A program made the translations under genes and the position numbers. Below are positions 2,741-22,373 of a stretch of DNA of 34,823 nt, piece by piece (the first letter of the stretch is position 1; every line of letters starts with the position of its first letter). Below the pieces are notes generated by a model. The model ran no database searches. It saw only the letters and a list, made by a program, of their open reading frames with translations, and was not told the origin of the DNA. The DNA is from a virus, in UHGV virus genome UHGV-0108273; one strand, written 5' to 3'.

Positions 2741-4525
2741 TTAACTAAAAGTAATCTTTCCGTCCCAATATATACCAATAGCATCATTGTTTGTTACATT
2801 TGTTGTGTTAGTAAAAACTACTTTAATATAAACACCAACTCCATATGTAGCGTACGTATCATATGAATCGGGTTTCACATAAACAGAAGCAGCCGATCCG
2901 TGTGTATACTTAGTGTTCTGCCTTAATACAAAACCGTCCAAACTGGTAGCCGTTGCAGTTGGTGATCCTATTATTGGTTTTGACATAGGAACCCAGAATG
3001 AAATATCTCTGCCGGAATTAGTCACATAACCAGCAGTTCGTAATGTTATCGAAATGGTATCTCCACGCGAATAATATGGTTTGTATGTACCTGGACTAGC
3101 CAAGTCACTAATACCAAATGTTATGTTATGACCATAAATATTCGTGTTGCCCGTTCTAGCATCCCAGTTTCCATACCCGACAATAGTATTACCATATTGG
3201 TTCTGAGCCTGGAATGCTTCGTGATAAGTCCCATCGGTAGCATTTTTAGCTATAATGGAATTCGGAGAATCCAGAACCACATCTTGCCTAAAATAAGCTT
3301 TATAATTAACATCAAAAGCGTCATTTAACTCAGCTGGTTTACCAATTGATACACCTTTTCCTCCAGCTTTAAAGTCGATAGGAAATCTAGCACCACCAAG
3401 AGTTTTCTTAACCGATGTAGTACCATTCTTACTATCAGTTACTTTAATTGTGAATTCATAAGATTTATCAACGTTTAACGCATTATCTCCTACTACTACA
3501 GAAGCGCTTCCACTATTACCAGATGCAGAGATGGTTTTCGTGTTGGTCAACCATGACACAGTTACTGATGTTACCGGGTTTGATCCGGTTAACTGACTAC
3601 AAGACCAATTAAATGTAATCTTACAATAAGTTCCGGTTTCCTGTGTCGTACCGCTTGAATTACAACGAGTAACTTTCACGCTTGATATAGTTGGAGGCTT
3701 ATACGCAAGTTCCCATACAGCGTAAAGAGTAATAGCAGCATTTGAAGTATAGTTAGCTCCTGCCGCATAAGCTACAGCACCTGTCGCAGACTTAGCCCAA
3801 CCTTTAAAGTTATAGTTCGTCCTGGTAGGTTTAGTAGTTGATAATTTAAGAGTTACACCGTACGTTTTCGTTTGCTGTGCAGGTGCTCCACTTCCTCCGT
3901 TAGCATTATAAGTAACTTTGTAAGTGATAGCCTGCCATACCGCATAAAGAGTAACACTCGCATTTGCTGTATAACTTGCCCCAGCAGCATAAGCCACACC
4001 CCCAGTAGAAGATGTGGCCCAACCTTTAAATGTATATCCTGTTCTCGTAGGTTTTGTAGACGATAATGTAATGTTTGTTCCATGCCATTTTGTCTGTTGA
4101 GATGGAGCACCTGAACCTCCGTTTGCGTTATAACTAATCTTATAGGAAGTTTTAGCCGCAACCGAGATCGATCCACTGGCAGTCTTAGTTCCAGCGTAGG
4201 TTCCGCTCCATGTGAAATTCATTTCAAAGGAGAACCACAAAGCGATAGATCTTGCTGATGTTCCCTTTGTAATAGTTACGGTTCCACTTGTAATTGTCTG
4301 AGAACTTTTACCACCTATGGAGAATGTTCCAGATTTAACAACTTTACCATCTATTTTGACACTGTAATTTTTCGCAACGCTAGAGTTAACAGTATATCCA
4401 TGAGTTACCCATTTGAGTGTCCAAGAAAGTGTGGCAGTGGTTGCAGTACTACTTGACTGAGTTACTACAAGTTGAACCTGCGGACAGGATGAACTACCAA
4501 ATTGTGCCGTTGTTAAAGTTGCCAT
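2741..4525 (-). CDS. Tail / receptor-binding protein with two tandem Listeria-Bacteroides-type (Flg_new-like) repeats
   Basis: 594-aa ORF. Two copies of 'YNANGGSGAP.QQTK..G..L.STKPTRTGY.FKGWA.S.TG.VAYAAGA.YT.NA..TLYAVW', matching the Y..F..NGG...P.R.GY.F.GW......Y.....TLYA.W signature. Start ATG overlaps the stop of the upstream gene (ATGA-type coupling at 4525). Confidence 0.7.
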   Translation of the reverse strand: MATLTTAQFGSSSCPQVQLVVTQSSSTATTATLSWTLKWVTHGYTVNSSVAKNYSVKIDGKVVKSGTFSIGGKSSQTITSGTVTITKGTSARSIALWFSFEMNFTWSGTYAGTKTASGSISVAAKTSYKISYNANGGSGAPSQQTKWHGTNITLSSTKPTRTGYTFKGWATSSTGGVAYAAGASYTANASVTLYAVWQAITYKVTYNANGGSGAPAQQTKTYGVTLKLSTTKPTRTNYNFKGWAKSATGAVAYAAGANYTSNAAITLYAVWELAYKPPTISSVKVTRCNSSGTTQETGTYCKITFNWSCSQLTGSNPVTSVTVSWLTNTKTISASGNSGSASVVVGDNALNVDKSYEFTIKVTDSKNGTTSVKKTLGGARFPIDFKAGGKGVSIGKPAELNDAFDVNYKAYFRQDVVLDSPNSIIAKNATDGTYHEAFQAQNQYGNTIVGYGNWDARTGNTNIYGHNITFGISDLASPGTYKPYYSRGDTISITLRTAGYVTNSGRDISFWVPMSKPIIGSPTATATSLDGFVLRQNTKYTHGSAASVYVKPDSYDTYATYGVGVYIKVVFTNTTNVTNNDAIGIYWDGKITFS

Positions 4526-5898
4526 TATGAATCACTTCCTTTCCAAATGAGACCCATGTTACCGTTACTGCGCTCTGCAAATGCAAATCCGCCAAATGCT
4601 AATTCATCCTCAACTTCTGCTTTTCCGATTTTTAACGATTGGTTAGTTACATATGCCGGGACGGTTGTACCATCCATGAATTTTATAGCTGTATTGGTGA
4701 TTAGAACTTTAAACGAACTCTCATTTCCAAGCTCAATGCACGGTTCGTCTCCATCAGTTGTGATTCGAATATAATTCGTTAACTCTTCCAAACCTGTCAC
4801 AGCATTTTCCAATGCAGTGATATCTCCACCTTGAGCGTCAATATCATTCTCCAAAGACTTTATTCCATCAATAGCATTCTGTAATTGAGTTAAAGTCTCA
4901 CCCATAGAAAATATCCATCCACTTGATGTTTGCTCCATTAACGAAGCTCCGCTACCGTCAACAACCATGGTAGATATTGAATCAGCTATCTGTGAAATCC
5001 TAGATTCTGCTTGTTCGATACGTTCAGTCAATCTATCGGCTGCATCTTGAGCAGCATTTTCCGCTGCTTCTAAGCCATTAGATGACGCTAAATCTTCCGG
5101 AGCCGGTGTCCAGTCGGTTGCTTTGTTTCCGAGTTCGAATTTAACATTTCGAATTTTGCAACCTACCTGTGTTGGACAATATATCTCTATTTTGTTACTA
5201 CTAATCAAGTCAGTTCCTTCTTCTCCTTTATCAGCAACGGTAATGTCCAATTCTTGATGTACCCAAGTAGTTCCAACAGCCTGGATTGAATTGTTTATAG
5301 TCATTACATATCTGGGTGTTCCGTTCGTATTATATACATTGCAAGTTGTACTTCCGTTTGGACTAACGATATCAAAACTCATTTTGACTTTTTCCCCAAC
5401 GAAGTTACTCATAGGAACTGTCAGATTATAAAATTGTGAAAAAGAACCTGTATCTTGATATGTTGCTAAGACATATTCATTATTTTCATCAAATGGTAAA
5501 CCACTACGACCATCACCATCATAATCAACGTCTCTTGTTCCGAAATAGTTTCTTCCTCCTATTTCAAGTCCGTCAATCTTATTATTAGTGCTATTCGCAG
5601 TGTTCTGTGCATTAACCGCTTTGTTGTATGCCTGCTTCGCCGCTTCATACGAGCTCGATTTCGAAACTGACGAATATCTAAAATTCCCATTTGTAAATAC
5701 AGTACAATCCACGAAATATAAAGTATTAGTAGATCCAGCACTGTATGAAGGTTCCGTCAATGACCAATTACCGCCTGGCGGATTACTTGTGGGTTTGGCC
5801 GGGATGTTGGTAGTAGACGATTGTAACAGATAATATCGAGTTACAGATTCTATATCAACGATATGGGATATTGTTATCTCGGCCTTCCCCCTAATCAT
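4525..5898 (-). CDS. Tail fibre / tail-associated protein (457 aa)
   Basis: N-terminus 'MIRGKAEITISHIVDIESV' is paralogous to the other fibre N-termini; 'GGNWSLTEPSYSAG...LYF' motif; coiled-coil-like central region (AENAAQDAADRLTERIEQAESRISQ); translationally coupled to the downstream gene. Confidence 0.6.
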   Translation of the reverse strand: MIRGKAEITISHIVDIESVTRYYLLQSSTTNIPAKPTSNPPGGNWSLTEPSYSAGSTNTLYFVDCTVFTNGNFRYSSVSKSSSYEAAKQAYNKAVNAQNTANSTNNKIDGLEIGGRNYFGTRDVDYDGDGRSGLPFDENNEYVLATYQDTGSFSQFYNLTVPMSNFVGEKVKMSFDIVSPNGSTTCNVYNTNGTPRYVMTINNSIQAVGTTWVHQELDITVADKGEEGTDLISSNKIEIYCPTQVGCKIRNVKFELGNKATDWTPAPEDLASSNGLEAAENAAQDAADRLTERIEQAESRISQIADSISTMVVDGSGASLMEQTSSGWIFSMGETLTQLQNAIDGIKSLENDIDAQGGDITALENAVTGLEELTNYIRITTDGDEPCIELGNESSFKVLITNTAIKFMDGTTVPAYVTNQSLKIGKAEVEDELAFGGFAFAERSNGNMGLIWKGSDS

Positions 5899-5908
5899 AT
5901 TAAGCTCC

Positions 5909-7033
5909 TTACTGCTCTAACTGAGCGGTATAAACTACAGAATTAGTAACCTCAGCCGCTGATACGCTCAATGTCTTACTGGTTTTAATTGCTGTAGTTG
6001 ATCCCTGTTTATACCATTTAATACTTCCAAGAGATCCGCATACTCCGGCGTCCGTGATTGACTGTTCAATAGCGCCTTTAAATACATGAGCTGTTAATAC
6101 AGTAGAGCCGGAATTGTTCTTAAATATAGTTCCGTTTGAGGAAGTAATGGTAATTGTAATAGCATCAGCTCCAGCATTACCCTGAGCACCTGTTGCTCCA
6201 TGAGTTCCGATGATTGCTGGAGTAGAAGAAGCTGTCTGACCATTTGTATATGTAGTCTTCTGATATGACCAAATATATTTGTTTGTTGTTGTAGTTGCTG
6301 TCGGTGTAGTTGACCATCCACTTGTAGATGTAGTCACTCCACTTGATGCGGATGTTGTAAGGTAGAAAGTTTCAACCTTCGATATGCCATTACCTGTAGC
6401 ACCTGTCTGACCTGTAGCTCCTGTTGCCCCATGAGTACCAATAATGACAGGTGTGGTTGTGGTCGGAGAACCTGTAGTATACGAAATTTTCTGATAACTC
6501 CACAAATATTTGTTAGTTGTTGTAGTGGACTGCATTGATGTTGTCCATCCGGTAGTAGAAGTAGTAACACCAGAAGGAGATGATGAAGCCAGGTAGTAGG
6601 TTTCAACTCCCGTAATACCTTTTCCCGGAGATCCAGTAGCTCCTGTCTGTCCAGTTGCTCCTGTCTGCCCCTTCATCGCTACCGCAAACGAGAACTTCTT
6701 ATTTACGGTGATTCCATCCACTACTACAGGTATTGTAGCCTCACAAGCTTCTGTAATTGCAGCTGTTGTTGTGAATGTTATTTTCACGGCTGATGTTCCA
6801 CTGTTTGCCACAGATGCACTAATTCCTTCTGGACAAGTTATATTAGCTGCTGTAACACTAACCGATGAACACTGATTTGTTCCGCAGAATGCAACAGCTT
6901 CTGTAGTACAAGTCAGACCAGTAGCTGTACCGCTAGTACCTCCAACAAAAGTGTAAGCTTCACTAGTTAACATGACTGAATACGCGTCTGTAACGTCTAT
7001 AATCGTAATCTGATCAGCTGATCTAATTGCCAT
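5909..7033 (-). CDS. Tail fibre-like structural protein with short collagen-like tracts and an internal tandem duplication (374 aa)
   Basis: N-terminus 'MAIRSADQITIIDVTDAYSV'; GQTGATGQTGATG tracts; duplicated segment 'SGVTTSTTGW.TS...TTTTNKY[LI]WSYQK..YT.G......P.IIGTHGATGA'; preceded by GGAGGAAAATCAAAATGG. Confidence 0.6.
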   Translation of the reverse strand: MAIRSADQITIIDVTDAYSVMLTSEAYTFVGGTSGTATGLTCTTEAVAFCGTNQCSSVSVTAANITCPEGISASVANSGTSAVKITFTTTAAITEACEATIPVVVDGITVNKKFSFAVAMKGQTGATGQTGATGSPGKGITGVETYYLASSSPSGVTTSTTGWTTSMQSTTTTNKYLWSYQKISYTTGSPTTTTPVIIGTHGATGATGQTGATGNGISKVETFYLTTSASSGVTTSTSGWSTTPTATTTTNKYIWSYQKTTYTNGQTASSTPAIIGTHGATGAQGNAGADAITITITSSNGTIFKNNSGSTVLTAHVFKGAIEQSITDAGVCGSLGSIKWYKQGSTTAIKTSKTLSVSAAEVTNSVVYTAQLEQ

Positions 7034-7051
7034 TTTGATTTTCCTCCCTTA

Positions 7052-8626
7052 TTAAACAATTAATTGACATAGAAATGTGATTTTTGTATCGACGTCTTCA
7101 GGACTTAGTGTGAAGGTAAAACCATCGTTGCCAAGTCGCTCATCGTCGGCTGATATAACTCCAAATGAATCGTCATTAAGTCGTTGCCAGCTCCATTCAA
7201 GGTATGCACCAGGACCAACTGCCTCTTTAAGGGTTTTCATATCTGTAATTCTTCTGCTTCCACGATAAATAACCGCCGATAATACGGTGGCTACTTGATC
7301 GTTCTTAAATACAGTTCCTCTCGATGATTCAATCCTCAAAAGAGTTGTTACTTCATCCTCAATCTGGGTCATATGATTTTTGATGCTATCAATCTCTTCT
7401 TGAAGACTTGGACCGCTGCTACCACCAGCAGACATTGATATGCTGTTTGCTGATATTTCGAGCTTATAAGTACCGTCTTCTGTTTTATAATATTTCAAGA
7501 AATTGCTAGAGTCTCCGAAAGCTATTTGCCCCTCATTATCGAGATAAATACCACGAGTATTGTTATCTACAGTCTCTTTAACTCCAGAATATATGGAATT
7601 GTTTGTTATATTAAGTCCACCAATAGTTGCGCCAAAAGCAACCAAATCGCTAACTGATATCTTCTCTGCTGTTACTGATTTCGCTCTAATGACTTGTCCA
7701 TTAAGGCTGTTATAATCAGTTTGTTCGGCTTCTGTGGTAACTCCATCTGTATTAAGTTTGTAATATAGACCGTCTTCACCTTTCACCACTAACTTATCAG
7801 CAACAATAGTATTGGCTTCAATCATGTCACCACGGATAGTAACACCGACCAACTCTCCTGTGAGCGTTTGATCTCCTACAACCAAATCTTTAATAAGACC
7901 ACTTTCAGTAAATAAGTTTGTAATAGCAGCTTTTCCGATATTGGAAAAATCGATATTGGCATATTTACCGTCAAGGTTGGCAATTGTAGCGTTGATGGCA
8001 GTTAAATCCTCTGTGGTAAGATTCTTGAAGTTACCAAAGTCAGATTCTAAATTATGAATATTAGCGTCGACAGCTTCCAGACTTCCTATTGTCGCGTATT
8101 TAATATCAGCTATATCGGCATCGAGTTTCTTAGCGTTTAAGTTTTCTATTTCCGCAGAATTAGCGGTTAGTTTCCCTTCAATTGTTGCATCATTGGCTTT
8201 TAATGTTTCAATATCGGCTTTGCTAGCAGTCAATGTATCTTTAATAGTCACATTATCACTGACTAAGTCATCGATACGACCCATCTGAGCATCGAATTCT
8301 TTAGTACTTACTTTGTCAGCAATTACTATTTCGAATTCTGATATTTGATCACCAATTTCCGTAACAACTTTATTACTAGCCGACGGGGATGACGTGCTAC
8401 CAGTGACAGTCGCAGAATGGTCTTTAATTGTCACAATAACTCGGTCACCGTTTTCTACTACTGTAGTAGATTTCATAGGTGTTAATAGATCAGACCCATC
8501 AAGCTTTACAAATTTCTCACCATTGTAATCGACTATTGTTCCAAAAGAGGTGCTTTCGGAAGGTTCCTTTTTGGTATCTTTAGTCGCTTTTACGAATTGT
8601 GATATCAAATCGCTAGAGAGTCCCAT
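7052..8626 (-). CDS. Tail fibre / baseplate protein with coiled-coil-like repeats (524 aa)
   Basis: Long ORF in the structural operon; heptad-like N/D/I/L-rich central region (ANSAEIENLNAKKLDADIADIKYATIGSLEAVDANIHNLESDF...). Confidence 0.55.
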   Translation of the reverse strand: MGLSSDLISQFVKATKDTKKEPSESTSFGTIVDYNGEKFVKLDGSDLLTPMKSTTVVENGDRVIVTIKDHSATVTGSTSSPSASNKVVTEIGDQISEFEIVIADKVSTKEFDAQMGRIDDLVSDNVTIKDTLTASKADIETLKANDATIEGKLTANSAEIENLNAKKLDADIADIKYATIGSLEAVDANIHNLESDFGNFKNLTTEDLTAINATIANLDGKYANIDFSNIGKAAITNLFTESGLIKDLVVGDQTLTGELVGVTIRGDMIEANTIVADKLVVKGEDGLYYKLNTDGVTTEAEQTDYNSLNGQVIRAKSVTAEKISVSDLVAFGATIGGLNITNNSIYSGVKETVDNNTRGIYLDNEGQIAFGDSSNFLKYYKTEDGTYKLEISANSISMSAGGSSGPSLQEEIDSIKNHMTQIEDEVTTLLRIESSRGTVFKNDQVATVLSAVIYRGSRRITDMKTLKEAVGPGAYLEWSWQRLNDDSFGVISADDERLGNDGFTFTLSPEDVDTKITFLCQLIV

Positions 8627-8632
8627 TAAATA

Positions 8633-9709
8633 TCACCCCCATAATTTAGTTGTAAATACAGCTTTCTCTGTAACTGGACATCCAGGCTCACATTTGATAG
8701 ATTGACTAACAACTTTGGCTTTTATGTTACTTATTCCAGCTCGTTTATAGTTAAGACGTACACAATCATTTAACCGTACAGGACAATACGCGTGAGTATA
8801 TGTCACCGTATATTCAAGGCAGGACACTTCACGGAGTAATTGCTCTGCATATTTTTGAATCTGTGATTCGGTCGGTATACCTGACAAGCTAGGATTAGTC
8901 ACTCGATGTAAAATCTCTCGACCGCGATTGATAGTAGAAGTTGGACTATTTTCGTCGTCATTAACTGCCCTACCGTAATAAATATCGTTAGCGTCAGAGT
9001 ATACTACCTCAACAACATTCGGTATTCCGTACAGATCATGATTTACTGTTATCTCAGGATACAAGATAGAACTATTATTATCATCATAGGTATGAACAGG
9101 TTGCAAAGAGGCCGTATCCTGATCGGGAGCGAAAAGAATACGACCTAATTCGTCTAAACTAAGTTTATATTTTGCATTTGATATCAAATCCGAAGTAAAT
9201 GTTATCCAAGTATCATCCGTGTTTGCTACAAAATCGTTATATAATTCAGTCTCATTGTCTGCTTTTATAACTGGTGCTCTTACGTTGTCACGACATATCT
9301 GATAGGCCATTTTCATGATGTTCTCGCCTTTTAATATGGAATATCCAAGAGGTGGTGGATTCTCCTTTAACTCAATCAGTGGTGTGTAAGCGTCAAGAGT
9401 GTTGTCTTGTTTCTTACCGTCGAATGATGAGGATGGGGTTTGAACTAAGTAAGTGCCTAGAGGATGTTTCTCAGTTAATCCATTTTGAATCGTAATGAGA
9501 TAAACCCTCACATAGCACTCACCGATAGTTTCCGTAATATCTAATGTAGCTGATCCAAGTGTTTCAGCCCCTGAGTCTCTGGAAATAGAACACGATTTCA
9601 CGGTATCTATTCGTTTCATATCTTTCCATGTGCCTGGATCGACTATATAGTATTCAAATGTCTGTTCCATCGACTTAGTCCAATCTGGCATATCAGATAC
9701 CTCCTTCAA
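8633..9709 (-). CDS. Tail / baseplate structural protein (358 aa)
   Basis: ORF overlapping the upstream gene by 17 nt and positioned among tail genes; no specific domain recognised by eye. Confidence 0.5.
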   Translation of the reverse strand: MKEVSDMPDWTKSMEQTFEYYIVDPGTWKDMKRIDTVKSCSISRDSGAETLGSATLDITETIGECYVRVYLITIQNGLTEKHPLGTYLVQTPSSSFDGKKQDNTLDAYTPLIELKENPPPLGYSILKGENIMKMAYQICRDNVRAPVIKADNETELYNDFVANTDDTWITFTSDLISNAKYKLSLDELGRILFAPDQDTASLQPVHTYDDNNSSILYPEITVNHDLYGIPNVVEVVYSDANDIYYGRAVNDDENSPTSTINRGREILHRVTNPSLSGIPTESQIQKYAEQLLREVSCLEYTVTYTHAYCPVRLNDCVRLNYKRAGISNIKAKVVSQSIKCEPGCPVTEKAVFTTKLWG

Positions 9710-11771
9710 CTCTTGTTATGTCTAGAGTAACCGGAATAGTGACATCGGAATGTTTCTGATTAAAAGATACAGTGATGTTTGCCCAATAGCCGCTTCCGGA
9801 CGGTTCCCTAACATACACATCACCCATCCATACGGATAAACGCCGTAATGCATAAAGAGTCTCTTTGTCTTCCTTAGGAATAACCATATTCCAAGTTGCA
9901 GAAGCGCCAACATGAGTGCCATAATAACTAACCGGATACTTTCTTCCGATATAATTTACGAGTGTACTATCCGGTTTGTTATTGTCTGATACATCAATGT
10001 TGTAAGGGATTTTCAGCATCGAACCTACCCATGGAGGAGTTTCGAGTTCTTCGTCTTCAGTTGTGTTAAAATTGGTCCATTCATCGTCCCACTGAATTAT
10101 TACGGAATTGCCTCCTACTGGATACCCAGGTGGATCATAGTAACTAACAGAACCTGTACTTTTCGATGTGGCGACAATTCTATATCGCGCGTAATCTAAA
10201 GCTGGGTGTGGATCAGTTACGTATGATTCATCTAAAGGAGATAGACCGGTAGCTAGCTCGGTAAATGTTCCATCAAACTCTTTCCTATAAACCGATAGCT
10301 CAACATCGGCCACAGCTTCCGACATTTCGTTCAAACAATATGGACTTATGTATGCTGTGTATGTTTCTTCGTCAATTCCTATTTCTGCATCCGGTTCATA
10401 TGTGAATTCAGTCCATGATACATCGAATTCTAATTCCGCTTCTGACGTAAGACCGGAATCCATAGAAGCAGTGCATTTAACTGTATAGCTGATGGCATTT
10501 TCGAGATCTATACTATGTGCAGAGATCTCCAATAACAACTGCTCTTTAGTGTCAAAGTACTGAGAATATAATGCTTCTCCTGCGTTTATTATTTTCTCAT
10601 TGCCTATTTCATCAACTGTTGTGTAAACTTCATTCGATGTTATTTCAACATGATATCCAATTGGCATCTGAGTGTTAGGACCAGTTTCACACTTAAGATA
10701 AATAGGAAACGAATTTACTGTAGTGATAATATTATTTTGATTATCAGTCAAATTCATGGACAATGTGGCCGGAGCATAAACGTTAACTGTTCTCTGTATC
10801 GACCAATCGCCATACTGTTTAGTTACACCAGCAGTTCTAACTCGCCACTTTATAACAGTGCCTTCTTTGTATTGGGTAGTATCCACAGAATAGAAACTGG
10901 TTCTATCTTTATCTTCTTCGACATTGGTATTTTCTATAGTGTGGGTTATTTTTTCTTCATCATAATATATCTCTAATTCAGCAAACGTCTGACTAGAGCC
11001 GTCTTCCGCATTATGAACCCAATATAGAAGTAACTCTTCCCCAGTAATCGCGGTAGTTGTTGAAGACCATGTTGTAGGAGCTGATGGACTTTTACCAATA
11101 ACTATGGATTTAATCGATGTCCATGACGATTCTCCATTATCGTTTACAGCTCGTACTCTAAAGAAATATTCCTGTCCTGATTCCATCCCGGTTATCTGAG
11201 CATATTGGTAAGCAGTAGATGTCACGCTTTTAACCTCTCCAGGATTTTGATCGAAATACGATTGTTTTGTTGTATATTCGATAGTAAAGCTTGTAGCATT
11301 CTCTACTTTTTCCCATTTAAGCTGCACAGACGTGTCCGACGTAGCCTTGATGAAAATTATTTCTTTAGGAGCTGCTGGTACTGTTCCTGCTGAATTCGAG
11401 TAATCAGACCATTCGCCATAGATTTTATCGCTTCCGTATAGGTTCACTGCTCTACAACGAACTCTGTAGTCTGAACCTGGATTAATAGTAAAAGACGCCA
11501 CAGCTCTACAGGTCTGAACCTTTACTGTCGACGTCTTAAACCGAGTTGCCCCACTATAAACTTCAAAAGCGATCTGGTCAGTTCTAGGATCATCAATGTT
11601 ATCGATAGTTGCTGTTAATGTGTACTTATCGATTTTTACACTTGGTGCATTAGGCTTAGCAGGAGGATTACCTGCAAAATTCAAGTATGCACTAGCTTTA
11701 GTGGCAGTCCAATAAGCAACGTCTTTACCATTCACCTTATGCTTTTTAGCGACAGGTTTAACATATACCAT
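9693..11771 (-). CDS. Tail structural protein with two N-terminal fibronectin type III-like domains (692 aa; possibly distal tail or baseplate component)
   Basis: FN3-like segments, e.g. 'PAAPKEIIFIKATSDTSVQLKWEKVENATSFTIEYT...ITGMESGQEYFFRVRAVNDNGESSWTS'. The annotated ATG at 11771 has no obvious Shine-Dalgarno, and the reading frame stays open 49 codons upstream into the preceding gene. Confidence 0.6.
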   Translation of the reverse strand: MVYVKPVAKKHKVNGKDVAYWTATKASAYLNFAGNPPAKPNAPSVKIDKYTLTATIDNIDDPRTDQIAFEVYSGATRFKTSTVKVQTCRAVASFTINPGSDYRVRCRAVNLYGSDKIYGEWSDYSNSAGTVPAAPKEIIFIKATSDTSVQLKWEKVENATSFTIEYTTKQSYFDQNPGEVKSVTSTAYQYAQITGMESGQEYFFRVRAVNDNGESSWTSIKSIVIGKSPSAPTTWSSTTTAITGEELLLYWVHNAEDGSSQTFAELEIYYDEEKITHTIENTNVEEDKDRTSFYSVDTTQYKEGTVIKWRVRTAGVTKQYGDWSIQRTVNVYAPATLSMNLTDNQNNIITTVNSFPIYLKCETGPNTQMPIGYHVEITSNEVYTTVDEIGNEKIINAGEALYSQYFDTKEQLLLEISAHSIDLENAISYTVKCTASMDSGLTSEAELEFDVSWTEFTYEPDAEIGIDEETYTAYISPYCLNEMSEAVADVELSVYRKEFDGTFTELATGLSPLDESYVTDPHPALDYARYRIVATSKSTGSVSYYDPPGYPVGGNSVIIQWDDEWTNFNTTEDEELETPPWVGSMLKIPYNIDVSDNNKPDSTLVNYIGRKYPVSYYGTHVGASATWNMVIPKEDKETLYALRRLSVWMGDVYVREPSGSGYWANITVSFNQKHSDVTIPVTLDITRVEGGI

Positions 11772-11890
11772 GACACTTATCGCATTTGACGGGACGGTGT
11801 ATGTAGATTGGTGTACTTTTTCTTGTGAATTACTTCCTACAAAAAATATTCCATCACCAGTGCTATAACGCCATTCAACTTGATAATAAT

Positions 11891-12247
11891 CTACATAAAA
11901 GATACTGACCTGGTTCCATCACCGAAGTCAGTACCACTTCCATCTTTTATCAGATATCCGACATTTATAGCGGACTGAATATTATGAGTACCACTTTTAT
12001 TCCTGCCTAGAACAGCTCTTGCTCCTTTAATCTGAGTAATTTTCCATGTCTCATTAAAAACCCAGGAGGAAATGCTAACACCGTTATACCATGTAGCACC
12101 ACTTTGAATTGTTACCCATTCGCCTACTCGATAGTTTCCAATTTGTTCTGCATATATTTTTGCCGGTTCTTTAAAGTCCCATGTAGCGTAATATGTACTA
12201 TCTGTACCAGACTGAAGCGCTAATTTAAGATTGGTAACTGACGCCAT
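11891..12247 (-). CDS. Hypothetical tail protein immediately downstream of the tape measure gene (118 aa)
   Basis: Strong RBS (AAAGGAGGA, about 8 nt spacing) and ATG 4 nt after the tape measure stop; no recognisable domain. Confidence 0.55.
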   Translation of the reverse strand: MASVTNLKLALQSGTDSTYYATWDFKEPAKIYAEQIGNYRVGEWVTIQSGATWYNGVSISSWVFNETWKITQIKGARAVLGRNKSGTHNIQSAINVGYLIKDGSGTDFGDGTRSVSFM

Positions 12248-12251
12248 TAGC

Positions 12252-15200
12252 TTATATCCTCCTTTCTATCACGGCTGCTCTTACAATTTCTTTAACAGCT
12301 TCTGTAATATTGCTTCCATCATCATAAGTAAGACCGTTAATGTTATATGAAACACCACCAACATTACCTAAGTCTTTACGAAGTCTGTTTATTGCTGAAA
12401 CAACATCATCCATAGATCCATTTTGAATTCTTTCACCCATCATAGAATTTATGGTGTTTAGTCTTGACATTACTCCCAATGTAGGAGTTCCATTCAACAT
12501 GCCGTTAATTGCACTAGCTCCAGATTTAATATCAGACAAATCAAGGACTGGTCTTATTGTCGGCTGAGTGTTGATATCTCCGTCAAGAAGACTCGAAATT
12601 CTCGACATTGCTGTTTGAGTACTGTTAACAGCGTTATCGGACATTCTAGAAATAGATTGTTTCACTAATCCTCCGAACATACCGATACCCTTAGCAAATC
12701 CAATAGGAACATATGAACCTATTTTCATGAACACCCTTGAAGGTGAATGAATAGCAAGATTAGCCCTAGCTGCTGCCGATGCTGCCGCTGCCATTGAAGC
12801 TGCTGCATTTGCCGCCGACCAAATGTTCGCTTGAATACCTGCTACAAATCCGCTAGCTACATAAGATCCAGAACTATAAAAGCTTGAATAATATCCTCTA
12901 GTAGAAGATACTGCTGAAGACAATATCGACGTTGTTGTGTTCACAACACTTGAAGCTCTACTTCGCATACCGTTTACGAATTGTGTCATTAAAGCAACGC
13001 CATTAGTTCCAAATACGGATCTTTTACTGCTAATAGCTTTAAGCATCGAGTTGATAATATTGGTAGCTGTTGATGTTACCAATGCTTGTTTTGATTTCAA
13101 ACCATTAGAGAAAGATGTAATTAAGTTCGATCCAATGTTCGACATCTTAGACGTTGAACCACTAAATGATTTAGTAATACTATTCATAGAAGTTTGACCC
13201 AAAGTAGATACAGCAGTTTTAAACGATGCTACGCCGCTTGTGTTAAGTCCGGCCAAACTACTAATAAAATTCTTAATCTTAGTAGCCGCTGTTATAGAGC
13301 TAGATATTGATCCGACATTTATACCTGCAACAGAATCAGAGTAACTTTTTAAAGTACTTCCGATAGTTCCTATCTTAAAGTTTGAAACTCCACTAGAATC
13401 CAAACTTGATAGTCCCTGAATAAAAGTCTTTAATCTATTTGCCGCAGTAACAGAAGATGTAACTTTACCAGAGTCCACATTTTCAACCGACTTAGAGTAG
13501 CTCTTCAAAGTAGTTCCAATAGATCCTATTTTGAAGTTACTAACACCACTACTATCCAATCCCGTAAGACTTGATACAAAATTTCTAAGTCTATTTGCTG
13601 ATGATATGGATGATGAGACTATACCCGGGTCCATATCTTTAACGGAGTTTCCGTAGTCCTGCATAGCCTTACCTATGGAATTAATCTTGAAGTTTTCAAT
13701 ACCGCTTGTATCAAGACCCACCAGACTAGCTATTAAACTCTTAAGTCTTAAAGCTACTGAGACTGCTGTGTTTACTTTAGCGATATCGATATCGGCTACA
13801 GATTCTCCGAACTTACCTATAGCCTGTCCAATATTAACCAAATGACCGTCTCCGGCTCCAACACCTGCAAAGCTACTAACACCACTTGCATCGAGATCGG
13901 CTAAAGCGGTAATCAGGTTTTTAATCCTATAAGCGGCTGTTATGGCGGTGTTTATACCATCAGAGTTTATGTTTGCAGCGTCTGTTGAGAATGTAGTCAT
14001 GGCCGAGCTGAATTTTTCGACGTATTTTGAGAATTCCTCAAGATTCATCTTACCGTCAAACCAGCCTTCTTCTGGAAGGGCTTCTTGAAGAGCTATAATA
14101 GCGCTACCTGCATTCGTTACGGATGTTACGACTGCTTCCGATATACCGTCCTCTCCCATTCCGGTTTTAAGTTTGCCCATAGCTGTAGCAAATTGACCTA
14201 TGTTTTCGCCAAAAGTTCCTAAGTCATCTTTTCCGGTAAACCAGTCGATTACTCCTCCCATATTCTCAAGAGAAGATTGTAATCCAGCAAGTTTAGTAGC
14301 CGCATTTATAATAGAAGTAATTGAATCATCATCTATTTTTGTATCTCCTAAATCGGCAAAAGCAGTTTTCATCGATCCCATAAAGCTAGCGACACTAGAC
14401 CCAAAAGTCCCTAAGTCGTCCCTTCCAGTGAACCAGTCAACCACTCCTCCTATATTTTCAAGCGATGACTGCAAGCCTGATAATTTAGTAGCTGCGTCGA
14501 TGATTATGCCGATTGCTTCGGTATTTATTTTGACTCCGTCTAAGCTTGAAAATGCTTTTGTCATAGATCCTATAAATAGACCTATATTTACACCAAATGT
14601 GCCGAGGTCGTCTCTACCTTTAAACCAGCTTATTACTCCGCCTATTGGTTCAAGGCTAGATTGAAGTTTACTCAGTTCAGCAGCTCCAGTAATGATCGAT
14701 GTTAAAGCTTCCGTATTGAAGGATACTCCGTCAAGACCTAGAAAAGCATTCTTCATTGAGAATATAAATTGACCGACGTTAGTTCCGAAAGTCGCGAGGT
14801 CATCCCTGCCAGAGAACCAATCCATAACACCGCCTATAGGCTCCAATGACGATTGTAATTCGCTAAGTTTCGTTGCTACATTTATCACAGCGCCCATTGC
14901 CGCCTCGTCTATTGTGATTCCAGCAGAAGCTTGCGATATCGCTTTCATAGCATTGAAGAACGCAACACCATCGGTCTCAAACTTCTCCATAGAAGTACCA
15001 CCGAGAGTGAATATGTCAGCGATAGAAGTACCAACTGTTGTAAATCCTATCTCTGCCATAGCACTCATTAAATCGGACACGCCATCGAAAGATCCTGATT
15101 TAATACCACTAGCATTTTCGCTTGCTATAGCTAGTTTGTCCATGAAATCAGCAATATTTTGACCTATTTCCGGTAAACTTCCGGTAATACCTTCTCCGAT

Positions 15201-18200
15201 TCCTCCTATGAATGCTCCGATTCCTTTGCCGATTGCGTTTCCTATTTTTCCTAATAATCCACCGCCAGCTTCAACAAGGGACGAAAAACCTGGAATTTTA
15301 GATAACCCACCGATTGCTGCCAGAAGTACTGCTATCTCAGCTATTACAGCACCAACGGCTAATACTCCGGTCATTGCTGGGCCGGCTAAAGCTCCAGCTC
15401 CGGCGAATACTTTCATCAATATTCCGATTACTCCGAATGCACCTATGCCTTTTAGCATAGTATCCATATCTAAATTGCCTATCGAATCGACGATACCTTT
15501 GACAACTTGTCCGACAAAATTCATTATTGCCGATATTAATTCTGGAGTATGCTCGGCAAGACTATTAATAACTCCGATTATAAAACCGAGAAGTGAATCG
15601 ACAATCTGTGGTGCATACTGTTCTAATGCGTCTAAAACGCCTAAGAGCAGTTTCAGAAAACTTTCAGCCAATTGAGGTGCATATTCTCCTATAACTTTTG
15701 CGATTTCGACGATACCTCGACCTATTACTTCAGCAATTTGTGGAATCAATCCTAAAATACCGGTGATTATAACTGTTATTGATGCGACAAGCGCTGTGGC
15801 ACCAGCAGTTCCAGCAGTAGCAAGAGCTGTGAATCCAGCTGATAGAGCAAGTATACCAACGCCAATTCCAGCTATAGCTACAGCAAATATAGCCATCGCA
15901 GCGGATAAACCAAGTATTGCCGGAGTGAGTGGACTCAGAAGAGCTCCAGCTACTCCTATTACTACAAAGGCTCCAGCAAGAGTTACGAGACCTTTTACTA
16001 TGCTCTCCCAACTCATAGATCCTAATGATTTCAATACAGGTGTTAAAATTGCTAATCCAGCAGCTGCAACAACTAATGCGGCAGACCCCTTAAGAGATCC
16101 ACTCATGGCTTTTAATCCAATAGATAGCTCGACCAAAGCTATTCCAAGTACAACGAGTCCTTTTCCTATACTCTCCCAGCTCATCGATCCTAATGATTTT
16201 AAGACTGGAGTTAATATAGCAAGTGCTGACGCCATCAAAAGCATTTGACCGCCGAACTTAGCGATAGATCCACTACCCTTGCTCATAATTTTAGAAGCTA
16301 ACACCAGCATTGTAACAATACCTAATATTCCAGCTCCACCTTTAGCTAATTCGTTCCAACTCATAGAACCCAAACTCTTACCAACAGCAGCCAAAATGCC
16401 AACCGCAGCTGACATGATAAGCATCTGTCCAGCAAATTTGGTTATAGACTTACTTTCAGTATTCATGAGTTTGGCAGCACCAACTAATATAGCGACTATT
16501 CCTAATATTCCGGCCCCACCTTTGGCTAATTCTTCCCAACTCATTGAACTGAGAATTTTAGCGACTCCAGATAACGCTGCTATTGCTGCTGATAATATAA
16601 GCATCTGTCCAGCAAATTTGGTTATAGACTTACTTTCGGTATTCATAAGTTTAGCAGCCGCGACGAGTATAGCTACCATTCCACCAATACCAACGAGGCC
16701 TTTTGCTACACCGTTCCAATCAAGTCCAGCTATAATTTTCATAGCGCCTGCTAATATAAGAATAGCTGCTCCGAGTCCAATCATCTGAACAGTTCTAGCT
16801 ATACCTGACAAACTTGATACTATACCAGATAAAGGTTTGACACTTTTGCTGTTTATTTTTTCAAGCACTGCTAATGCAGATATCAACTCTACAAACAAAC
16901 CGCCTATTGCGCCTAAAGAACTTCCGAGTTTATCCTCGTCTATTCCAGATATGACAAAAAGAGCCGCTGCCAGTATTCCAATAGCACCCGCTATTTTTAG
17001 CAATGTTCCGGCTTTAAGATTCTGTTGCCATGATTCCAAACTTCCCTTAACGCCATCAAGTATTTTTTTAACGTTATCTAAGAAACTTATTTTTTCGAAT
17101 GGATCAGATAATCCTTTAATAAAGTTTCTTATGGCTAGTAATATTCCAGCAAACAATCCGCTGTTTAATACTTCGAAAATATCGCCTTTACCAAAGGCAT
17201 CGGCTATCATATTACCTATATCGGAAAAAGCTTCTCCGATGGCCGCGCCAACCGACTTTATAGTGTTCCATAGACCGGAAAAGAAGCCAAGAAAACCTTG
17301 AAGTGTAGGAGAAATCTTAAAACTCTCAATAAGTGAGCGTCCAAACTCTGCTATTTTTGAAATCCCGTTGCTAAGAAATCCAACAATTTTATCAACTGCG
17401 TCGCCAAACAGATTTCCTTCTACTATGGAGTCTCTCACATTCGAGATAAAATCTCCAAAAGAACTCGTTGCATCCAGTATTCCTCCACCAAGTCCGGTGA
17501 AGTTTCCAATAATATCTAGAGCGCCTTTTCCAACAGCTTTAAAAGCCTCTATAACAATATCGATAGCGGAAAAGATTCCTTTAAATGTAGATTTTATTTT
17601 AGATGCAGCGCCTTCACTTACTTTTAAAGTATCAGTGAAAGCTTTGAATCTATCAATCATACTTACTACTTGGTCGACTGTAGTAGGTGGAAATATCTCT
17701 CTAAAAGCTTCTTTTATCGGTTTTATTATATCTCCAAGGAATTTGAATATATTTTTCAAACCCTCTATAATTTTTTCTCTACCGCCAAGCTCGGTTATTC
17801 CATCGATAAGACCATCTATGTTGTCTTTTAATTTATTCGTAGATTCGTTTGCTTCATTTAGCGCTTTTAATGTAGCGTCATCAACGATACCTGTTATTTC
17901 TAAATCGTTAGCTTCCTGAAAAGCTTTAATAGCTGACTCTGTGGCACTTCCGAAAATTCCATCAGCACCAGAATCGCCAATATCATAGTTAAGGCTTTGT
18001 AATGCTTTTTGTACTTTTGTTACGTCGTCTCCTGTATTACCTTTCGATAAACCGGCTTCGACTCCACTTAAATCTACAAGTTCGCCTTTTAATCCGCTAA
18101 CAGCTTCTTTTAAAATATCAGAAGATATGGCACCAGATTGAAAAGCTTTTTCTAGAGAACCATATTTTTTTATGATCTCGTCCATATTAACGCCATGGTC

Positions 18201-19415
18201 CTCAGCAATCGATCTAACTTTTTCCTCAAAAGTATCGGTTTCTACACCAGCTTCATTTATTTTTTTTACAAGCTTATCCCAGTTAGAAGACATCGCGCCT
18301 TCCAATAATTCGTTACGAGATTTCGCTGATGATTCAACCATCTTTCCAATGGTATCTGAAATTCCAGTGAACAATTCTTTGGAGTCTTCAAAATCACCGA
18401 CAAGTATTCTCCAAGTTTGACCCCATCCAGATTGGAGAGATTCTTTTACCGTATCTATCAGCTGTGTGAATGTTTTTACTTTTGAAGCAGCGTCTTCAGC
18501 GTCCTTCGCTAAAGCCATAATATCGTTTGCTTGAGATTCGCTATAACCTTGGGCAATAAGATCGGCCTTACTATATGCGCCAGACAATTGGTTAAGAGTT
18601 TCAGTTAATACCTCGGTCGTTAACCATTCACCTTTTGTTAGGCTTTCTCTAAAGCTGCCATATGTATCAATAGCTTGTTTAGCGCCTGTTCCCAAAAGTT
18701 CAGACGTTCTAACAAGTGCGTCCTGAAATACCTTACCACCCATACCGGCATTAACAACTGAGTTCCAGTCCATAAGACTAACTTTACCTGCCGCCAATGC
18801 CTGAGAAAGCTGATACATCGCAGTAGATGCCTGTTGAGAAGTTGATCCAGAAACTGCGGCCAAGTTCGCAATACCTTTAATAGCATTAACTGAGGTATCA
18901 AGTTTTACACCAGCTGCTGTAAACGTACCGATATTACGAGTCATTTCCGTAAAATTGTAAATCGTCTTATCGGCATATGTATTTAGCTCATCTAAAGCCT
19001 TATTTACAATATCAACATTAGTGCCTTCCTGCCTTGTATTGGATAGAATTGTCTGAATAGCACCAATCTGAGTTTCGTATTCTTGGAAACCGCTTTTAAC
19101 CGGATCTATAGTTAATGCTGATATCATACGTTTACCAGTGTTAACAGCCTGGTTAGTGATGTTTGCTAAAGCAGTTACACCAGCGACCTGTAGTGCTGAA
19201 AATTTAGCCTGAACTGTCTCTATACCACTGCTCATTCCTGCAAAGCTAACACCTTTAGCAGCCTTACCGACATTCTCCAACCCTTTGGAGGCACCAGATA
19301 GATTTAACTTTTGTTTGAGCTTATCGAGAGTTGACATACTGGTTGCGACTCCGCTCTCAAACTGCTTATTGTCGAACCGCATCTCCAAGACTCTGTTGTC
19401 AATAGTCGTACTCAT
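12252..19415 (-). CDS. Tail tape measure protein, 2387 aa, with a peptidoglycan-binding (PG_binding_1-like) domain and three families of internal tandem repeats
   Basis: N-terminal region typical of tape measure proteins; 'GDDVTKVQKALQSLNYDIGDSGADGIFGSATESAIKAFQEANDLEITGIVDDATLKALNEA' matches the PG_binding_1 pattern; long hydrophobic and Gly/Ala/Ser-rich repeat blocks; start overlaps the upstream gene stop (ATGA). Confidence 0.88.
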   Translation of the reverse strand: MSTTIDNRVLEMRFDNKQFESGVATSMSTLDKLKQKLNLSGASKGLENVGKAAKGVSFAGMSSGIETVQAKFSALQVAGVTALANITNQAVNTGKRMISALTIDPVKSGFQEYETQIGAIQTILSNTRQEGTNVDIVNKALDELNTYADKTIYNFTEMTRNIGTFTAAGVKLDTSVNAIKGIANLAAVSGSTSQQASTAMYQLSQALAAGKVSLMDWNSVVNAGMGGKVFQDALVRTSELLGTGAKQAIDTYGSFRESLTKGEWLTTEVLTETLNQLSGAYSKADLIAQGYSESQANDIMALAKDAEDAASKVKTFTQLIDTVKESLQSGWGQTWRILVGDFEDSKELFTGISDTIGKMVESSAKSRNELLEGAMSSNWDKLVKKINEAGVETDTFEEKVRSIAEDHGVNMDEIIKKYGSLEKAFQSGAISSDILKEAVSGLKGELVDLSGVEAGLSKGNTGDDVTKVQKALQSLNYDIGDSGADGIFGSATESAIKAFQEANDLEITGIVDDATLKALNEANESTNKLKDNIDGLIDGITELGGREKIIEGLKNIFKFLGDIIKPIKEAFREIFPPTTVDQVVSMIDRFKAFTDTLKVSEGAASKIKSTFKGIFSAIDIVIEAFKAVGKGALDIIGNFTGLGGGILDATSSFGDFISNVRDSIVEGNLFGDAVDKIVGFLSNGISKIAEFGRSLIESFKISPTLQGFLGFFSGLWNTIKSVGAAIGEAFSDIGNMIADAFGKGDIFEVLNSGLFAGILLAIRNFIKGLSDPFEKISFLDNVKKILDGVKGSLESWQQNLKAGTLLKIAGAIGILAAALFVISGIDEDKLGSSLGAIGGLFVELISALAVLEKINSKSVKPLSGIVSSLSGIARTVQMIGLGAAILILAGAMKIIAGLDWNGVAKGLVGIGGMVAILVAAAKLMNTESKSITKFAGQMLILSAAIAALSGVAKILSSMSWEELAKGGAGILGIVAILVGAAKLMNTESKSITKFAGQMLIMSAAVGILAAVGKSLGSMSWNELAKGGAGILGIVTMLVLASKIMSKGSGSIAKFGGQMLLMASALAILTPVLKSLGSMSWESIGKGLVVLGIALVELSIGLKAMSGSLKGSAALVVAAAGLAILTPVLKSLGSMSWESIVKGLVTLAGAFVVIGVAGALLSPLTPAILGLSAAMAIFAVAIAGIGVGILALSAGFTALATAGTAGATALVASITVIITGILGLIPQIAEVIGRGIVEIAKVIGEYAPQLAESFLKLLLGVLDALEQYAPQIVDSLLGFIIGVINSLAEHTPELISAIMNFVGQVVKGIVDSIGNLDMDTMLKGIGAFGVIGILMKVFAGAGALAGPAMTGVLAVGAVIAEIAVLLAAIGGLSKIPGFSSLVEAGGGLLGKIGNAIGKGIGAFIGGIGEGITGSLPEIGQNIADFMDKLAIASENASGIKSGSFDGVSDLMSAMAEIGFTTVGTSIADIFTLGGTSMEKFETDGVAFFNAMKAISQASAGITIDEAAMGAVINVATKLSELQSSLEPIGGVMDWFSGRDDLATFGTNVGQFIFSMKNAFLGLDGVSFNTEALTSIITGAAELSKLQSSLEPIGGVISWFKGRDDLGTFGVNIGLFIGSMTKAFSSLDGVKINTEAIGIIIDAATKLSGLQSSLENIGGVVDWFTGRDDLGTFGSSVASFMGSMKTAFADLGDTKIDDDSITSIINAATKLAGLQSSLENMGGVIDWFTGKDDLGTFGENIGQFATAMGKLKTGMGEDGISEAVVTSVTNAGSAIIALQEALPEEGWFDGKMNLEEFSKYVEKFSSAMTTFSTDAANINSDGINTAITAAYRIKNLITALADLDASGVSSFAGVGAGDGHLVNIGQAIGKFGESVADIDIAKVNTAVSVALRLKSLIASLVGLDTSGIENFKINSIGKAMQDYGNSVKDMDPGIVSSSISSANRLRNFVSSLTGLDSSGVSNFKIGSIGTTLKSYSKSVENVDSGKVTSSVTAANRLKTFIQGLSSLDSSGVSNFKIGTIGSTLKSYSDSVAGINVGSISSSITAATKIKNFISSLAGLNTSGVASFKTAVSTLGQTSMNSITKSFSGSTSKMSNIGSNLITSFSNGLKSKQALVTSTATNIINSMLKAISSKRSVFGTNGVALMTQFVNGMRSRASSVVNTTTSILSSAVSSTRGYYSSFYSSGSYVASGFVAGIQANIWSAANAAASMAAAASAAARANLAIHSPSRVFMKIGSYVPIGFAKGIGMFGGLVKQSISRMSDNAVNSTQTAMSRISSLLDGDINTQPTIRPVLDLSDIKSGASAINGMLNGTPTLGVMSRLNTINSMMGERIQNGSMDDVVSAINRLRKDLGNVGGVSYNINGLTYDDGSNITEAVKEIVRAAVIERRI
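13250..16800 (-). repeat. Intragenic tandem repeats within the tape measure gene (three repeat families, about 45-62 codons each)
   Basis: Protein repeats 'LSSLDSSGVSNFKIGSIG..LKSYS.SV...', 'LQSSLE.IGGV.DWF.GRDDLGTFG...' and 'AKLMNTESKSITKFAGQMLI.SAA...LSSMSW.ELAKGGAGILGIV' recur 4-6 times. Corresponding DNA stretches recur (e.g. 'ctcccaactcatagatcctaatgattt' near 16000 and 16180). These generate the spurious plus-strand ORFs at 14200..17301. Confidence 0.8.
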
Positions 19416-19804: not shown

Positions 19805-21373
19805 TTACAGTAGCTCGTTAACTCGATCCTGAATTTTCTGAATCATGTTGTGATCGTATCCAGCTTTTGCGAGGGCATTAATTCGTGCATCTCCATTACC
19901 GTATTTTCCGGCAATGACATCACGGGCTACATTATCAATCACTATCTGATTTACTTTCTTCTGCACAGTGTCTGGATTATAACCAGCTTTCTTGAGAGCA
20001 GACACACGAGCATCACCATTACCCCATTTTCCAGCTAAAACCTCTTTAGCTACTTCATCGATAGATTTAGTAGGTTTTGCAGGAGCTTTAAGTAGTTCAT
20101 TCACTTTCTTCTGTACAGTGTCTGGATTATAACCAGCTTTCTTGAGAGCAGACACACGAGCATCACCATTACCCCATTTACCGGCGATTACTTCTTTAGC
20201 AATTTCATCGATAGATTTGGTCGGTTTTGGCGTAGATGTAGGTTTAGATGTTGGTGCTGGTGTGGAAGAACTTTTCGCATATTTTGGTCTAGCAAAACCA
20301 CGAATCATACCCCAGCCAACCGGAATGGTACGTCTTGCTACTGCTTCTCCTCTGTTACCTTCAATCGCTGTGATTTGTCCGTTTGAAACAGATTCCACAT
20401 ACCCGATATGATCAGAATATCCGTCGTTTGGCTGAGTCTTATCATCCCAGTTATAAACAATTACATCACCAGGTTTCGGAGTAATGGTGCCGTCCTCGAC
20501 CCAAATGCCTTTCTGCTTAAAAATCTTAATATGTTCCTCACAACCAACTTCTGTACCGATGAGATCGACTGCTCCGGATTTGATAGCTGCTGCTGATACT
20601 GTACAATCACACCATTCATCATTAGGTTTAATAGCGTATCCGCGAGCCAAAGGTTTGTGAGAATTATAGATGTTAAGAATCTCAATATATTTACCGTTAG
20701 CTTCAGAATAACCGAGCCAACTTCTCATAACATTAAGAACGTCCTGTGCTGTTACACCCAATTCCGTATCCTCCTGTTTTCCGTAAAAATAGTTCATGTC
20801 GACTTTACCTTTAATACCGCCTACAGTTCCGGAACTCGTATACTGATGAACCAAACAACCGTAATCTGCTTTTCCGTTATAATCAGCGAGCCAGAATTTG
20901 TACTGTTTAATCAGATCATGATTATACCAATTTCGATAGTAGTCGATATTTGCGTAGATTCCAGCTTTGTATCCCTGAGATTCTACGTACTCACAAAAGA
21001 TTCTTGTAAAGTTATTACATTCATTTTTACCAAGTCTCACACCTTTTGCAGCTGCTTTCTTGACTGTGTCATATTCGAAATCTGCGAAGATGATTGTGTT
21101 TTTATCAAGACCAGCTTTTCTAACAACATCAACACAGAATTTTGCTTCGTCAAGTGCGCCCTGTTCGTTTAAGGCATAAATAAAATGGTAAGTTCCTATA
21201 ATCGGAATCTTGTTGTTTTTACACCCATTGACATACTCATAGAATTTTGAATCTACTGTCTTCCTGTAAGAAGATCTAAGAATCGCGAACTCTATTCCGG
21301 AGGACTTGACTTTAGAAAAATCTACATCTCCCTGCCAATAGCTGATATCAATTCCTTTCTTCACAATCATCAT
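19805..21373 (-). CDS. Modular peptidoglycan hydrolase: GH25 muramidase + CHAP-like peptidase + three CW_7 (Cpl-7-type) cell-wall-binding repeats
   Basis: N-terminus 'GIDISYWQGDVDF...FAILRSSY...IGTYHF' fits the GH25 signature. Central Cys...His...E/N segment ('WCDCTVSAA...SDHIGYVESVSNGQITAIEGN') is CHAP-like. Three C-terminal repeats 'KSIDE.AKEV.AGKWGNGDAR.SALKKAGYNPDTVQKKVN' match CW_7. No signal peptide seen. Confidence 0.85.
   Translation of the reverse strand: MMIVKKGIDISYWQGDVDFSKVKSSGIEFAILRSSYRKTVDSKFYEYVNGCKNNKIPIIGTYHFIYALNEQGALDEAKFCVDVVRKAGLDKNTIIFADFEYDTVKKAAAKGVRLGKNECNNFTRIFCEYVESQGYKAGIYANIDYYRNWYNHDLIKQYKFWLADYNGKADYGCLVHQYTSSGTVGGIKGKVDMNYFYGKQEDTELGVTAQDVLNVMRSWLGYSEANGKYIEILNIYNSHKPLARGYAIKPNDEWCDCTVSAAAIKSGAVDLIGTEVGCEEHIKIFKQKGIWVEDGTITPKPGDVIVYNWDDKTQPNDGYSDHIGYVESVSNGQITAIEGNRGEAVARRTIPVGWGMIRGFARPKYAKSSSTPAPTSKPTSTPKPTKSIDEIAKEVIAGKWGNGDARVSALKKAGYNPDTVQKKVNELLKAPAKPTKSIDEVAKEVLAGKWGNGDARVSALKKAGYNPDTVQKKVNQIVIDNVARDVIAGKYGNGDARINALAKAGYDHNMIQKIQDRVNELL
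19840..20230 (-). repeat. CW_7 repeat array at DNA level; two copies nearly identical (about 19953..20036 and 20103..20186, period 150 bp)
   Basis: 'ctttcttctg[c/t]acagtgtctggattataaccagctttcttgagagcagacacacgagcatcaccattaccccattt' occurs twice with 1-2 mismatches; the third copy is more diverged. Confidence 0.8.
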
Positions 21374-21959: not shown

Positions 21960-22373
21960 TTAAGCTCCTGGAAGCAGATTCTTTGAATTAGCTTCCTGTG
22001 CAACATCAGCCGGAACGATGCCGTTAATAAATGCCGCTGCTGCTTCTGCGTCTGTAGCAAGTTCCATGAAGAGTGTGGAATAAGCTTCTGTCTGTGAAAA
22101 CTTTCTTGACAGTGGTCTTCCGTCCTCATCAAGTTTCATGAAACCTTTACCATCCGGAGCCTTTTCTCCATATGCTTTAAGAATAAGATCTTTAAAGATA
22201 GCTACGATTGTCGGAGTATCCTGTGCTGCCACGACTTTCTCAATCATCTCAGCGAATCCACCAACTGTAGATAATTCCATCTCCATAATTTCTGCTTTAG
22301 AAAGGTTGAAGTAATATGTATCTTCTCTTTCTACTCCGTTGTAATCTGTGTATTTAATAGCTTTTTTTAACAT
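21960..22373 (-). CDS. Putative tail assembly chaperone (G-like), 137 aa
   Basis: Small acidic protein directly downstream of the putative major tail gene and terminator; RBS AAAGGAGAA; assignment by position and composition only. Confidence 0.45.
   Translation of the reverse strand: MLKKAIKYTDYNGVEREDTYYFNLSKAEIMEMELSTVGGFAEMIEKVVAAQDTPTIVAIFKDLILKAYGEKAPDGKGFMKLDEDGRPLSRKFSQTEAYSTLFMELATDAEAAAAFINGIVPADVAQEANSKNLLPGA

Follow-up and report, generated by a model that had tools for sequence, protein, structure and literature searches.

A predicted −1 frameshift downstream of a phage tape measure gene is a single tail gene broken by a 25-nt deletion private to one contig

Introduction

Programmed −1 frameshifts of the G/GT type are located upstream of the tape measure gene, take place on a slippery heptamer and join two ORFs whose arrangement is conserved across phages. 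Xu, Hendrix and Duda are said to have described this type of frameshift, in 2004, for the tail assembly chaperones of long-tailed phages. The locus studied here raises the question of whether a comparable event joins two overlapping ORFs of a phage tail module, in this case located after the tape measure gene. The whole stretch of DNA that was analysed, called the window from here on, is 34,823 nt long and corresponds to NODE_389_length_34823_cov_3.673176 of ENA assembly ERZ1755184, a SPAdes-style metagenome contig with a k-mer coverage of ~3.7x. On its minus strand, an ORF of 118 aa is followed, in the −1 frame, by an ORF of 692 aa coding for an FN3 tail protein. The original prediction, made from the window alone, interpreted this pair as the site of a G/GT-like programmed frameshift, and named a sequencing indel and translational coupling or re-initiation as alternatives.

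Results

Two overlapping reading frames

The 118-aa ORF maps to 11891..12247 (minus strand). A survey of Shine-Dalgarno (SD) motifs in the window found a strong SD, AAGGAGG, upstream of its ATG at 12247. By direct reading of the minus strand, the 3' end of this ORF is ...TCA GTA TCT TTT ATG TAG, with the TAG at 11893-11891, so that the mRNA does end in UCU UUU AUG UAG, as originally described. No family was found for the 118-aa ORF in Pfam, PHROGs or NCBIfam.

The annotated 692-aa ORF (9693..11771, minus strand) starts from an ATG at 11771. No SD match was found for this ATG; a match of 5-8 nt is present at 21 of the 28 candidate starts in the window. Upstream of ATG 11771 the frame remains open for 49 codons, as counted by hand, starting from position 11918 and devoid of any ATG, GTG or TTG, and it is closed by a TGA at 11921-11919. 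This frame is −1 with respect to that of the 118-aa ORF (TTT at 11899-11897 versus TTT at 11900-11898), and overlaps the last ~8 sense codons of the latter. The ORF table, the translations and the SD survey all agree on these points with the description given in the original prediction, which proved accurate for the start-less extension as well as for the −1 overlap.

The 120 nt separating the stop codon of the 118-aa ORF from ATG 11771 are coding. The closest homologue has exactly the same residues as their translation, YVDYYQVEWRYSTGDGIFFVGSNSQEKVHQSTYTVPSNAISV, and homologues at 60-68% identity conserve this stretch. In addition, a Pfam fn3 domain is present in the 3' fragment. The two-ORF pattern is real and not a product of chance, and is what a single gene looks like after a frame-changing lesion has broken it.

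Homologues of the fused product

To compare the locus with its relatives, the 851-aa conceptual fusion of both frames was used as a query against a protein collection. Among the 120 homologue clusters listed, 119 are single proteins of 840-893 aa that cover 100% of the query, the remaining one (P0027) being 776 aa long with a query coverage of 86%; identity to the query ranges from 53 to 98% among the matches listed. Because a gene that is split cannot appear as a full-length match in a protein database, the comparison was repeated at the DNA level in a frame-blind way, by tblastn and ORF walking on viral contigs, genomes of 185,579 species and metagenomes. For the viral contigs, a scan with the 692-aa product alone recovered 3 loci only, and was replaced by a scan with a 40-sequence alignment.

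The tblastn survey yielded 100 related loci (87 distinct), and in every one of them the homologue lies in one frame, within one stop-to-stop ORF. Complete ORFs, of 755-937 aa, are present in 95 of these loci, and the number of split genes is 0. The original prediction had proposed a comparison with orthologous loci; the overlap is conserved in 0 of the 100, the homologue always being one ORF. Where the genome records name a host, it belongs to the gut Clostridia, among them Eubacterium ramulus, Lachnospiraceae and Oscillospiraceae, and a megablast of the locus against 50,697 GenBank phage records gave no match.

When the intact homologue P0001 was aligned to the window by tblastn, its residues 1-118 matched at 99% identity in one frame, and its residues 126-859 matched at 98% identity in the adjacent frame, starting from 11897. 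Both fragments are therefore colinear with one uninterrupted homologue, in adjacent frames, as in an indel-split gene. Specifically, the 118-aa ORF covers residues 1-117 of the intact protein of 859 aa, followed by a spurious Met and by a stop codon that derive from the frame change. The 3' fragment (9693..11918, minus strand), which consists of the annotated 692-aa ORF and of its 49-codon start-less extension, corresponds to residues 126-859. The proposal that the two ORFs are parts of one protein of ~850 aa is thus borne out by the single-ORF homologues, in which the 49-codon extension is included as coding sequence.

Many relatives lack the counterpart of residues ~27-125 altogether, and in these the sequence ..K.FGLQSNTDRT.YATW.W.. 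(the equivalent of residues 4-25 of the 118-aa ORF) is joined directly to Y.DHY.V.W.Y.TGDG, the start of the extension. It follows that the 118-aa ORF cannot stand alone. The window's subfamily carries an insert of ~95 residues inside the first FN3-like domain, and the break cuts this composite unit.

The N-terminus of the family is modular, as seen in L028, L047-L069, L077, L090 and L091 among the loci compared with window positions 11891-12247. Many relatives have an N-terminal segment that looks LysM-like, by sequence look alone (YTVKKGDTL..I..GQVLKL), and no insert, and a few have neither. This variation looks like module swapping on a conserved scaffold.

A 25-nt segment missing from the window

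DNA alignments and blastn gap lists place the lesion at 11896..11900 (minus strand), where 25 nt are missing from the window in comparison with all close relatives. At this junction the relatives read GTA TCT TTT TTC GCA GCA CCA AGA GCT AC(T/C) TCT TAT GTA (..VSF FAAPRATS YV..), while the window reads GTA TCT TTT ATG TAG, with a gap of 25 nt and perfectly matching flanks. On the mRNA strand, the missing bases are TTCGCAGCACCAAGAGCTAC(C/T)TCTT, which encode FAAPRATS plus one base. A microhomology of 2 nt (TT) leaves the exact breakpoint ambiguous inside the TTTT run. Slippage between two TCTT repeats was rejected as the origin of the gap, since it would remove 27 nt in frame, whereas the observed gap is of 25 nt with TT microhomology only.

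Metagenome contigs were then scanned for both junction flanks, allowing 0-30 free bases between them. The only matches were OHES01001109.1 (L101) and OHCC01001405.1 (L102), both with a 25-nt spacer. Over the 2,555-nt gene, these contigs show 0 mismatches to the window, and the sole difference consists of 25 extra bases, TTCGCAGCACCAAGAGCTACCTCTT, in the presence of which an intact 859-aa ORF is obtained (...RSVSF-FAAPRATS-YVDYYQ...). The identity extends well beyond the gene, as blastn found L101 to be identical to the window across 6415..14640 except for the 25 nt. At the protein level, the junction would read RSVSFYVDYYQVEWR in a −1 fusion product and RSVSFFAAPRATSYVDYYQVEWR in the intact form.

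A 96%-identical strain is intact too, as the segment is carried by L001, L002 and four more contigs (P0001). Within the 25 nt, the ACC codon of L101 and L102 is replaced by ACT in this strain; the difference is synonymous, which indicates that the 25-nt segment evolves as coding sequence. All together, these comparisons show the locus to be one ordinary tail gene of ~859 residues, broken in the window by a 25-nt deletion that is private to one contig. The 'slippery' UCU UUU AUG UAG, which is present in no relative, was itself created by the deletion. Searching further assemblies of this strain for the junction, with a gap of variable length allowed, proved a cheap and decisive test.

Origin of the deletion

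We consider it probable, although far from certain, that the deletion arose during assembly or sequencing rather than in the phage. The assembly of a low-coverage metagenome region would have introduced the 25-nt loss, the phage itself having an intact gene. Falling in the codons of a flexible linker (FAAPRATS), the deletion shifts the frame by one base and generates the apparent '−1 overlap', with no recoding mechanism involved. The handling of a coverage gap may have caused the loss. As for the sequencing indel named as an alternative in the original prediction, the idea of a frame-changing indel holds, but the lesion is a 25-nt deletion and not a miscount of the TTTT homopolymer.

The exact 118-aa and 692-aa products were found in no other contig of a collection of 153 billion gene positions. 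A second line of evidence comes from L102, which is identical to the window over 3732..14077 (10.3 kb) except for one substitution (window 7330) and for two private deletions of its own, one of 30 nt (window 5467-5496, in the 457-aa tail gene) and one of 20 nt (7064-7083, at the 3' end of the 524-aa gene). In the aligned sequences the junctions of these deletions show a microhomology of 3 nt each (TAA and TTG), and at 7064-7083 the window agrees with L001 and L101. The occurrence of different private short deletions in near-identical assemblies points to assembly error, and suggests that these metagenome assemblies suffer repeatedly from such deletions.

Spurious frameshift pseudogenes are documented to stem in large part from assemblies of low coverage, and pseudogenes that are discordant between near-identical genomes mark the low-coverage artefact (PMC11017572). 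The cases reported there share several features with the present one: a conserved gene is split by one frame-changing indel that near-identical assemblies lack, coverage of the contig is very low, and sister assemblies carry different private lesions. They differ in that they concern isolate genomes and mostly short indels, while here the lesion is of 25 nt and lies in a metagenome contig.

The main rival explanation, which we regard as unlikely but worth serious consideration, is that the 25-nt deletion is real, i.e. a very recent private mutation of the phage or prophage population, generated by microhomology-mediated slippage. An essential tail gene would then be inactivated, the contig representing a defective prophage or a non-viable minority variant, and its products would be a 118-aa N-terminal stub with little or no C-terminal protein. 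The lesion is, after all, present in the deposited contig, and a deletion of 25 nt is unlike the classic Illumina errors, which are substitutions and homopolymer miscounts. Replication slippage or end-joining in vivo would fit the 2-nt TT microhomology of the junction equally well. Moreover, relatives occur as prophages in genomes of Clostridia (Eubacterium ramulus, Lachnospiraceae MAGs), where decay is common, and the lack of any other difference from L101 over 8.2 kb is what would be expected of a very young mutation. On the other side, the lesion is found in a single contig with ~3.7x k-mer coverage, and two other samples yielded same-strain contigs with an intact gene. In addition, the different private deletions of 20-30 nt in the sister assembly L102 argue for a common technical cause.

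Recoding and re-initiation

If the deletion were real, its effect might be partly rescued by occasional, unprogrammed −1 slippage on U UUU A, yielding some 851-aa protein with a linker 8 residues shorter, and a small amount of this protein could be enough for a low-copy tail-tip component. The U UUU sequence does permit re-pairing. The deleted residues (118-125) fall almost wholly in a segment with AlphaFold2 pLDDT <50 (residues 104-124 of P0001), and homologues vary in both length and sequence at this segment, so that a shortened linker could be tolerated. However, single-site slippage on a run of four U is normally very inefficient, no clear stimulatory elements are present, and a real deletion has to be presupposed. 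For these reasons we judge such a rescue very improbable; if true, it would represent natural leaky suppression, by ribosomal slippage, of a frameshift mutation in an essential virion gene.

The programmed −1 ribosomal frameshift originally put forward, in which tRNA-Phe slips on U UUU before AUG UAG to give a regulated, G/GT-like fusion of ~851 aa, can be set aside almost with certainty. The pair of ORFs in the window resembles the G/GT arrangement in that both are overlapping tail-module ORFs, with a downstream frame that is −1 and that lacks its own start and SD. It differs in that it lies downstream of the tape measure gene, contains no heptamer and is a single ORF in every relative. A tRNA-Phe moving back by one base would again pair perfectly with UUU, and the −1 frame does enter conserved protein sequence. 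However, the zero frame (GUA UCU UUU AUG UAG) contains no X XXY YYZ, which leaves only single-tRNA re-pairing on U UUU, and the slip site exists only through the deletion, intact relatives reading TCT TTT TTC GCA. All the 100 related loci are uninterrupted (0/100 split), as is the ORF of the identical strain, whose contigs carry the 25 extra, frame-restoring bases.

The downstream RNA folds slightly better than its shuffled versions (MFE of -19.4 kcal/mol versus a shuffle mean of -14.05, z = -2.0). The stem, however, starts at the slip site and lacks the 5-9-nt spacer, and its sequence is identical in intact relatives, indicating that it has not been selected for frameshifting. Being weak, devoid of a spacer and present in intact relatives, this fold was not accepted as evidence for a frameshift stimulator. 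A 9-bp inverted repeat, ATGTAGATT / AATCTACAT, located in coding sequence at 11888-11896 / 11800-11808, constitutes the outer stem of the predicted fold, and its proximal arm is identical in intact relatives.

No more credible is the alternative of two separate genes, with the 692-aa protein produced by re-initiation or coupling at ATG 11771: although both the ORF caller and the archive gene table list two genes, this ATG lies 120 nt past the stop codon without an SD, within a conserved domain rich in beta-strands, the earlier of which are encoded upstream, and none of the relatives, whose homologues are single ORFs, starts at its equivalent. Transcriptional slippage was also discarded, the T run being of only 4 nt.

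What the window shows is therefore an ordinary case of a gene model broken in a contig of low coverage. The locus should be annotated as one post-tape-measure FN3 tail gene of 859 aa, with a deletion that probably arose in assembly; an annotation of a programmed frameshift, or of a pair of genes (118 and 692 aa), would place a false gene model in the databases. More generally, caution is needed with a start-less downstream ORF that overlaps its neighbour in the −1 frame, as this pattern mimics recoding and here comes from a private 25-nt deletion.

The intact tail protein and its genomic neighbourhood

The intact product is predicted to be an FN3-rich protein of ~859 aa, its gene being the first tail gene to follow the tape measure gene within a siphovirus-like structural module. 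Full-length homology and the position after the tape measure gene both place it in the family of post-tape-measure FN3-rich tail proteins. It comprises several FN3-type beta-sandwich domains and a strongly conserved C-terminal region (..VYVREPSGSGYWA..); in the AlphaFold2 model of P0001, the conserved C-terminal ~140 residues are at low confidence. A PDB profile search, as well as Foldseek of the AlphaFold2 model against the PDB, returned generic FN3 chains only, and no match above noise came from NCBIfam, searched with the intact protein and with its neighbours.

Among viral structures, the best match to the model of the intact protein is A0A8S5P7T7, an 841-aa tail protein named 'FN3' from an uncultured gut Siphoviridae (Foldseek E = 4.6e-78, 45% identity over 816 columns). 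This protein belongs to the same length class and protein family and has the same multi-FN3 architecture. With respect to this family no relevant difference emerged, the window copy being set apart only by the 25-nt lesion.

On the 5' side of the broken gene lies the tape measure gene (12252..19415, minus strand, 2387 aa), which matches Pfam TMP_3 and PG_binding_1 and PHROG 4372, tail length tape measure protein, with 1258 bits. On the 3' side, the next tail gene (8633..9691, minus strand, 352 aa from its ATG) matches PHROG 1887, tail protein, and is preceded by the SD AAGGAGGT. The order tape measure gene, broken gene, 352-aa gene and 524-aa gene is common to the window, L001 and L002. Besides the tape measure gene, the structural module includes portal, protease-like, major tail protein and chaperone-position genes and an endolysin-like ORF.

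Two ORFs occupy the position at which a G/GT pair would be found, one at 21960..22373 (137 aa) and the other at 21370..21930 (186 aa), both on the minus strand. They do not overlap, and the frame of the 186-aa ORF is closed by a TGA at 21936-21934 and has its own SD, GGAGG. Therefore, no G/GT-type frameshift is apparent in this phage.

A 522-aa ORF (19805-21373, minus strand) matches endolysin PHROGs (phrog_6745, E = 1.2e-72), and this endolysin-like ORF is part of the tail module, flanked by the chaperone-position genes on one side and the tape measure gene on the other. Within the tape measure protein of the window, PG_binding_1 maps to residues 461-519, and a CW_7 domain is present in the tape measure of L001. 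The alignment of the tape measure gene with L101 (14580-16600) shows dense blocks of substitutions at ~14640-14865 and 16458-16596, with overlapping alignment segments, a pattern that suggests a mosaic structure or repeat-mediated exchange. Finally, a 645-aa ORF (23790-25727, minus strand) matches PHROG 3270, 'head maturation protease', with 746 bits, best over residues 228-640; unusually long for a protease, it may be a protease-capsid fusion.
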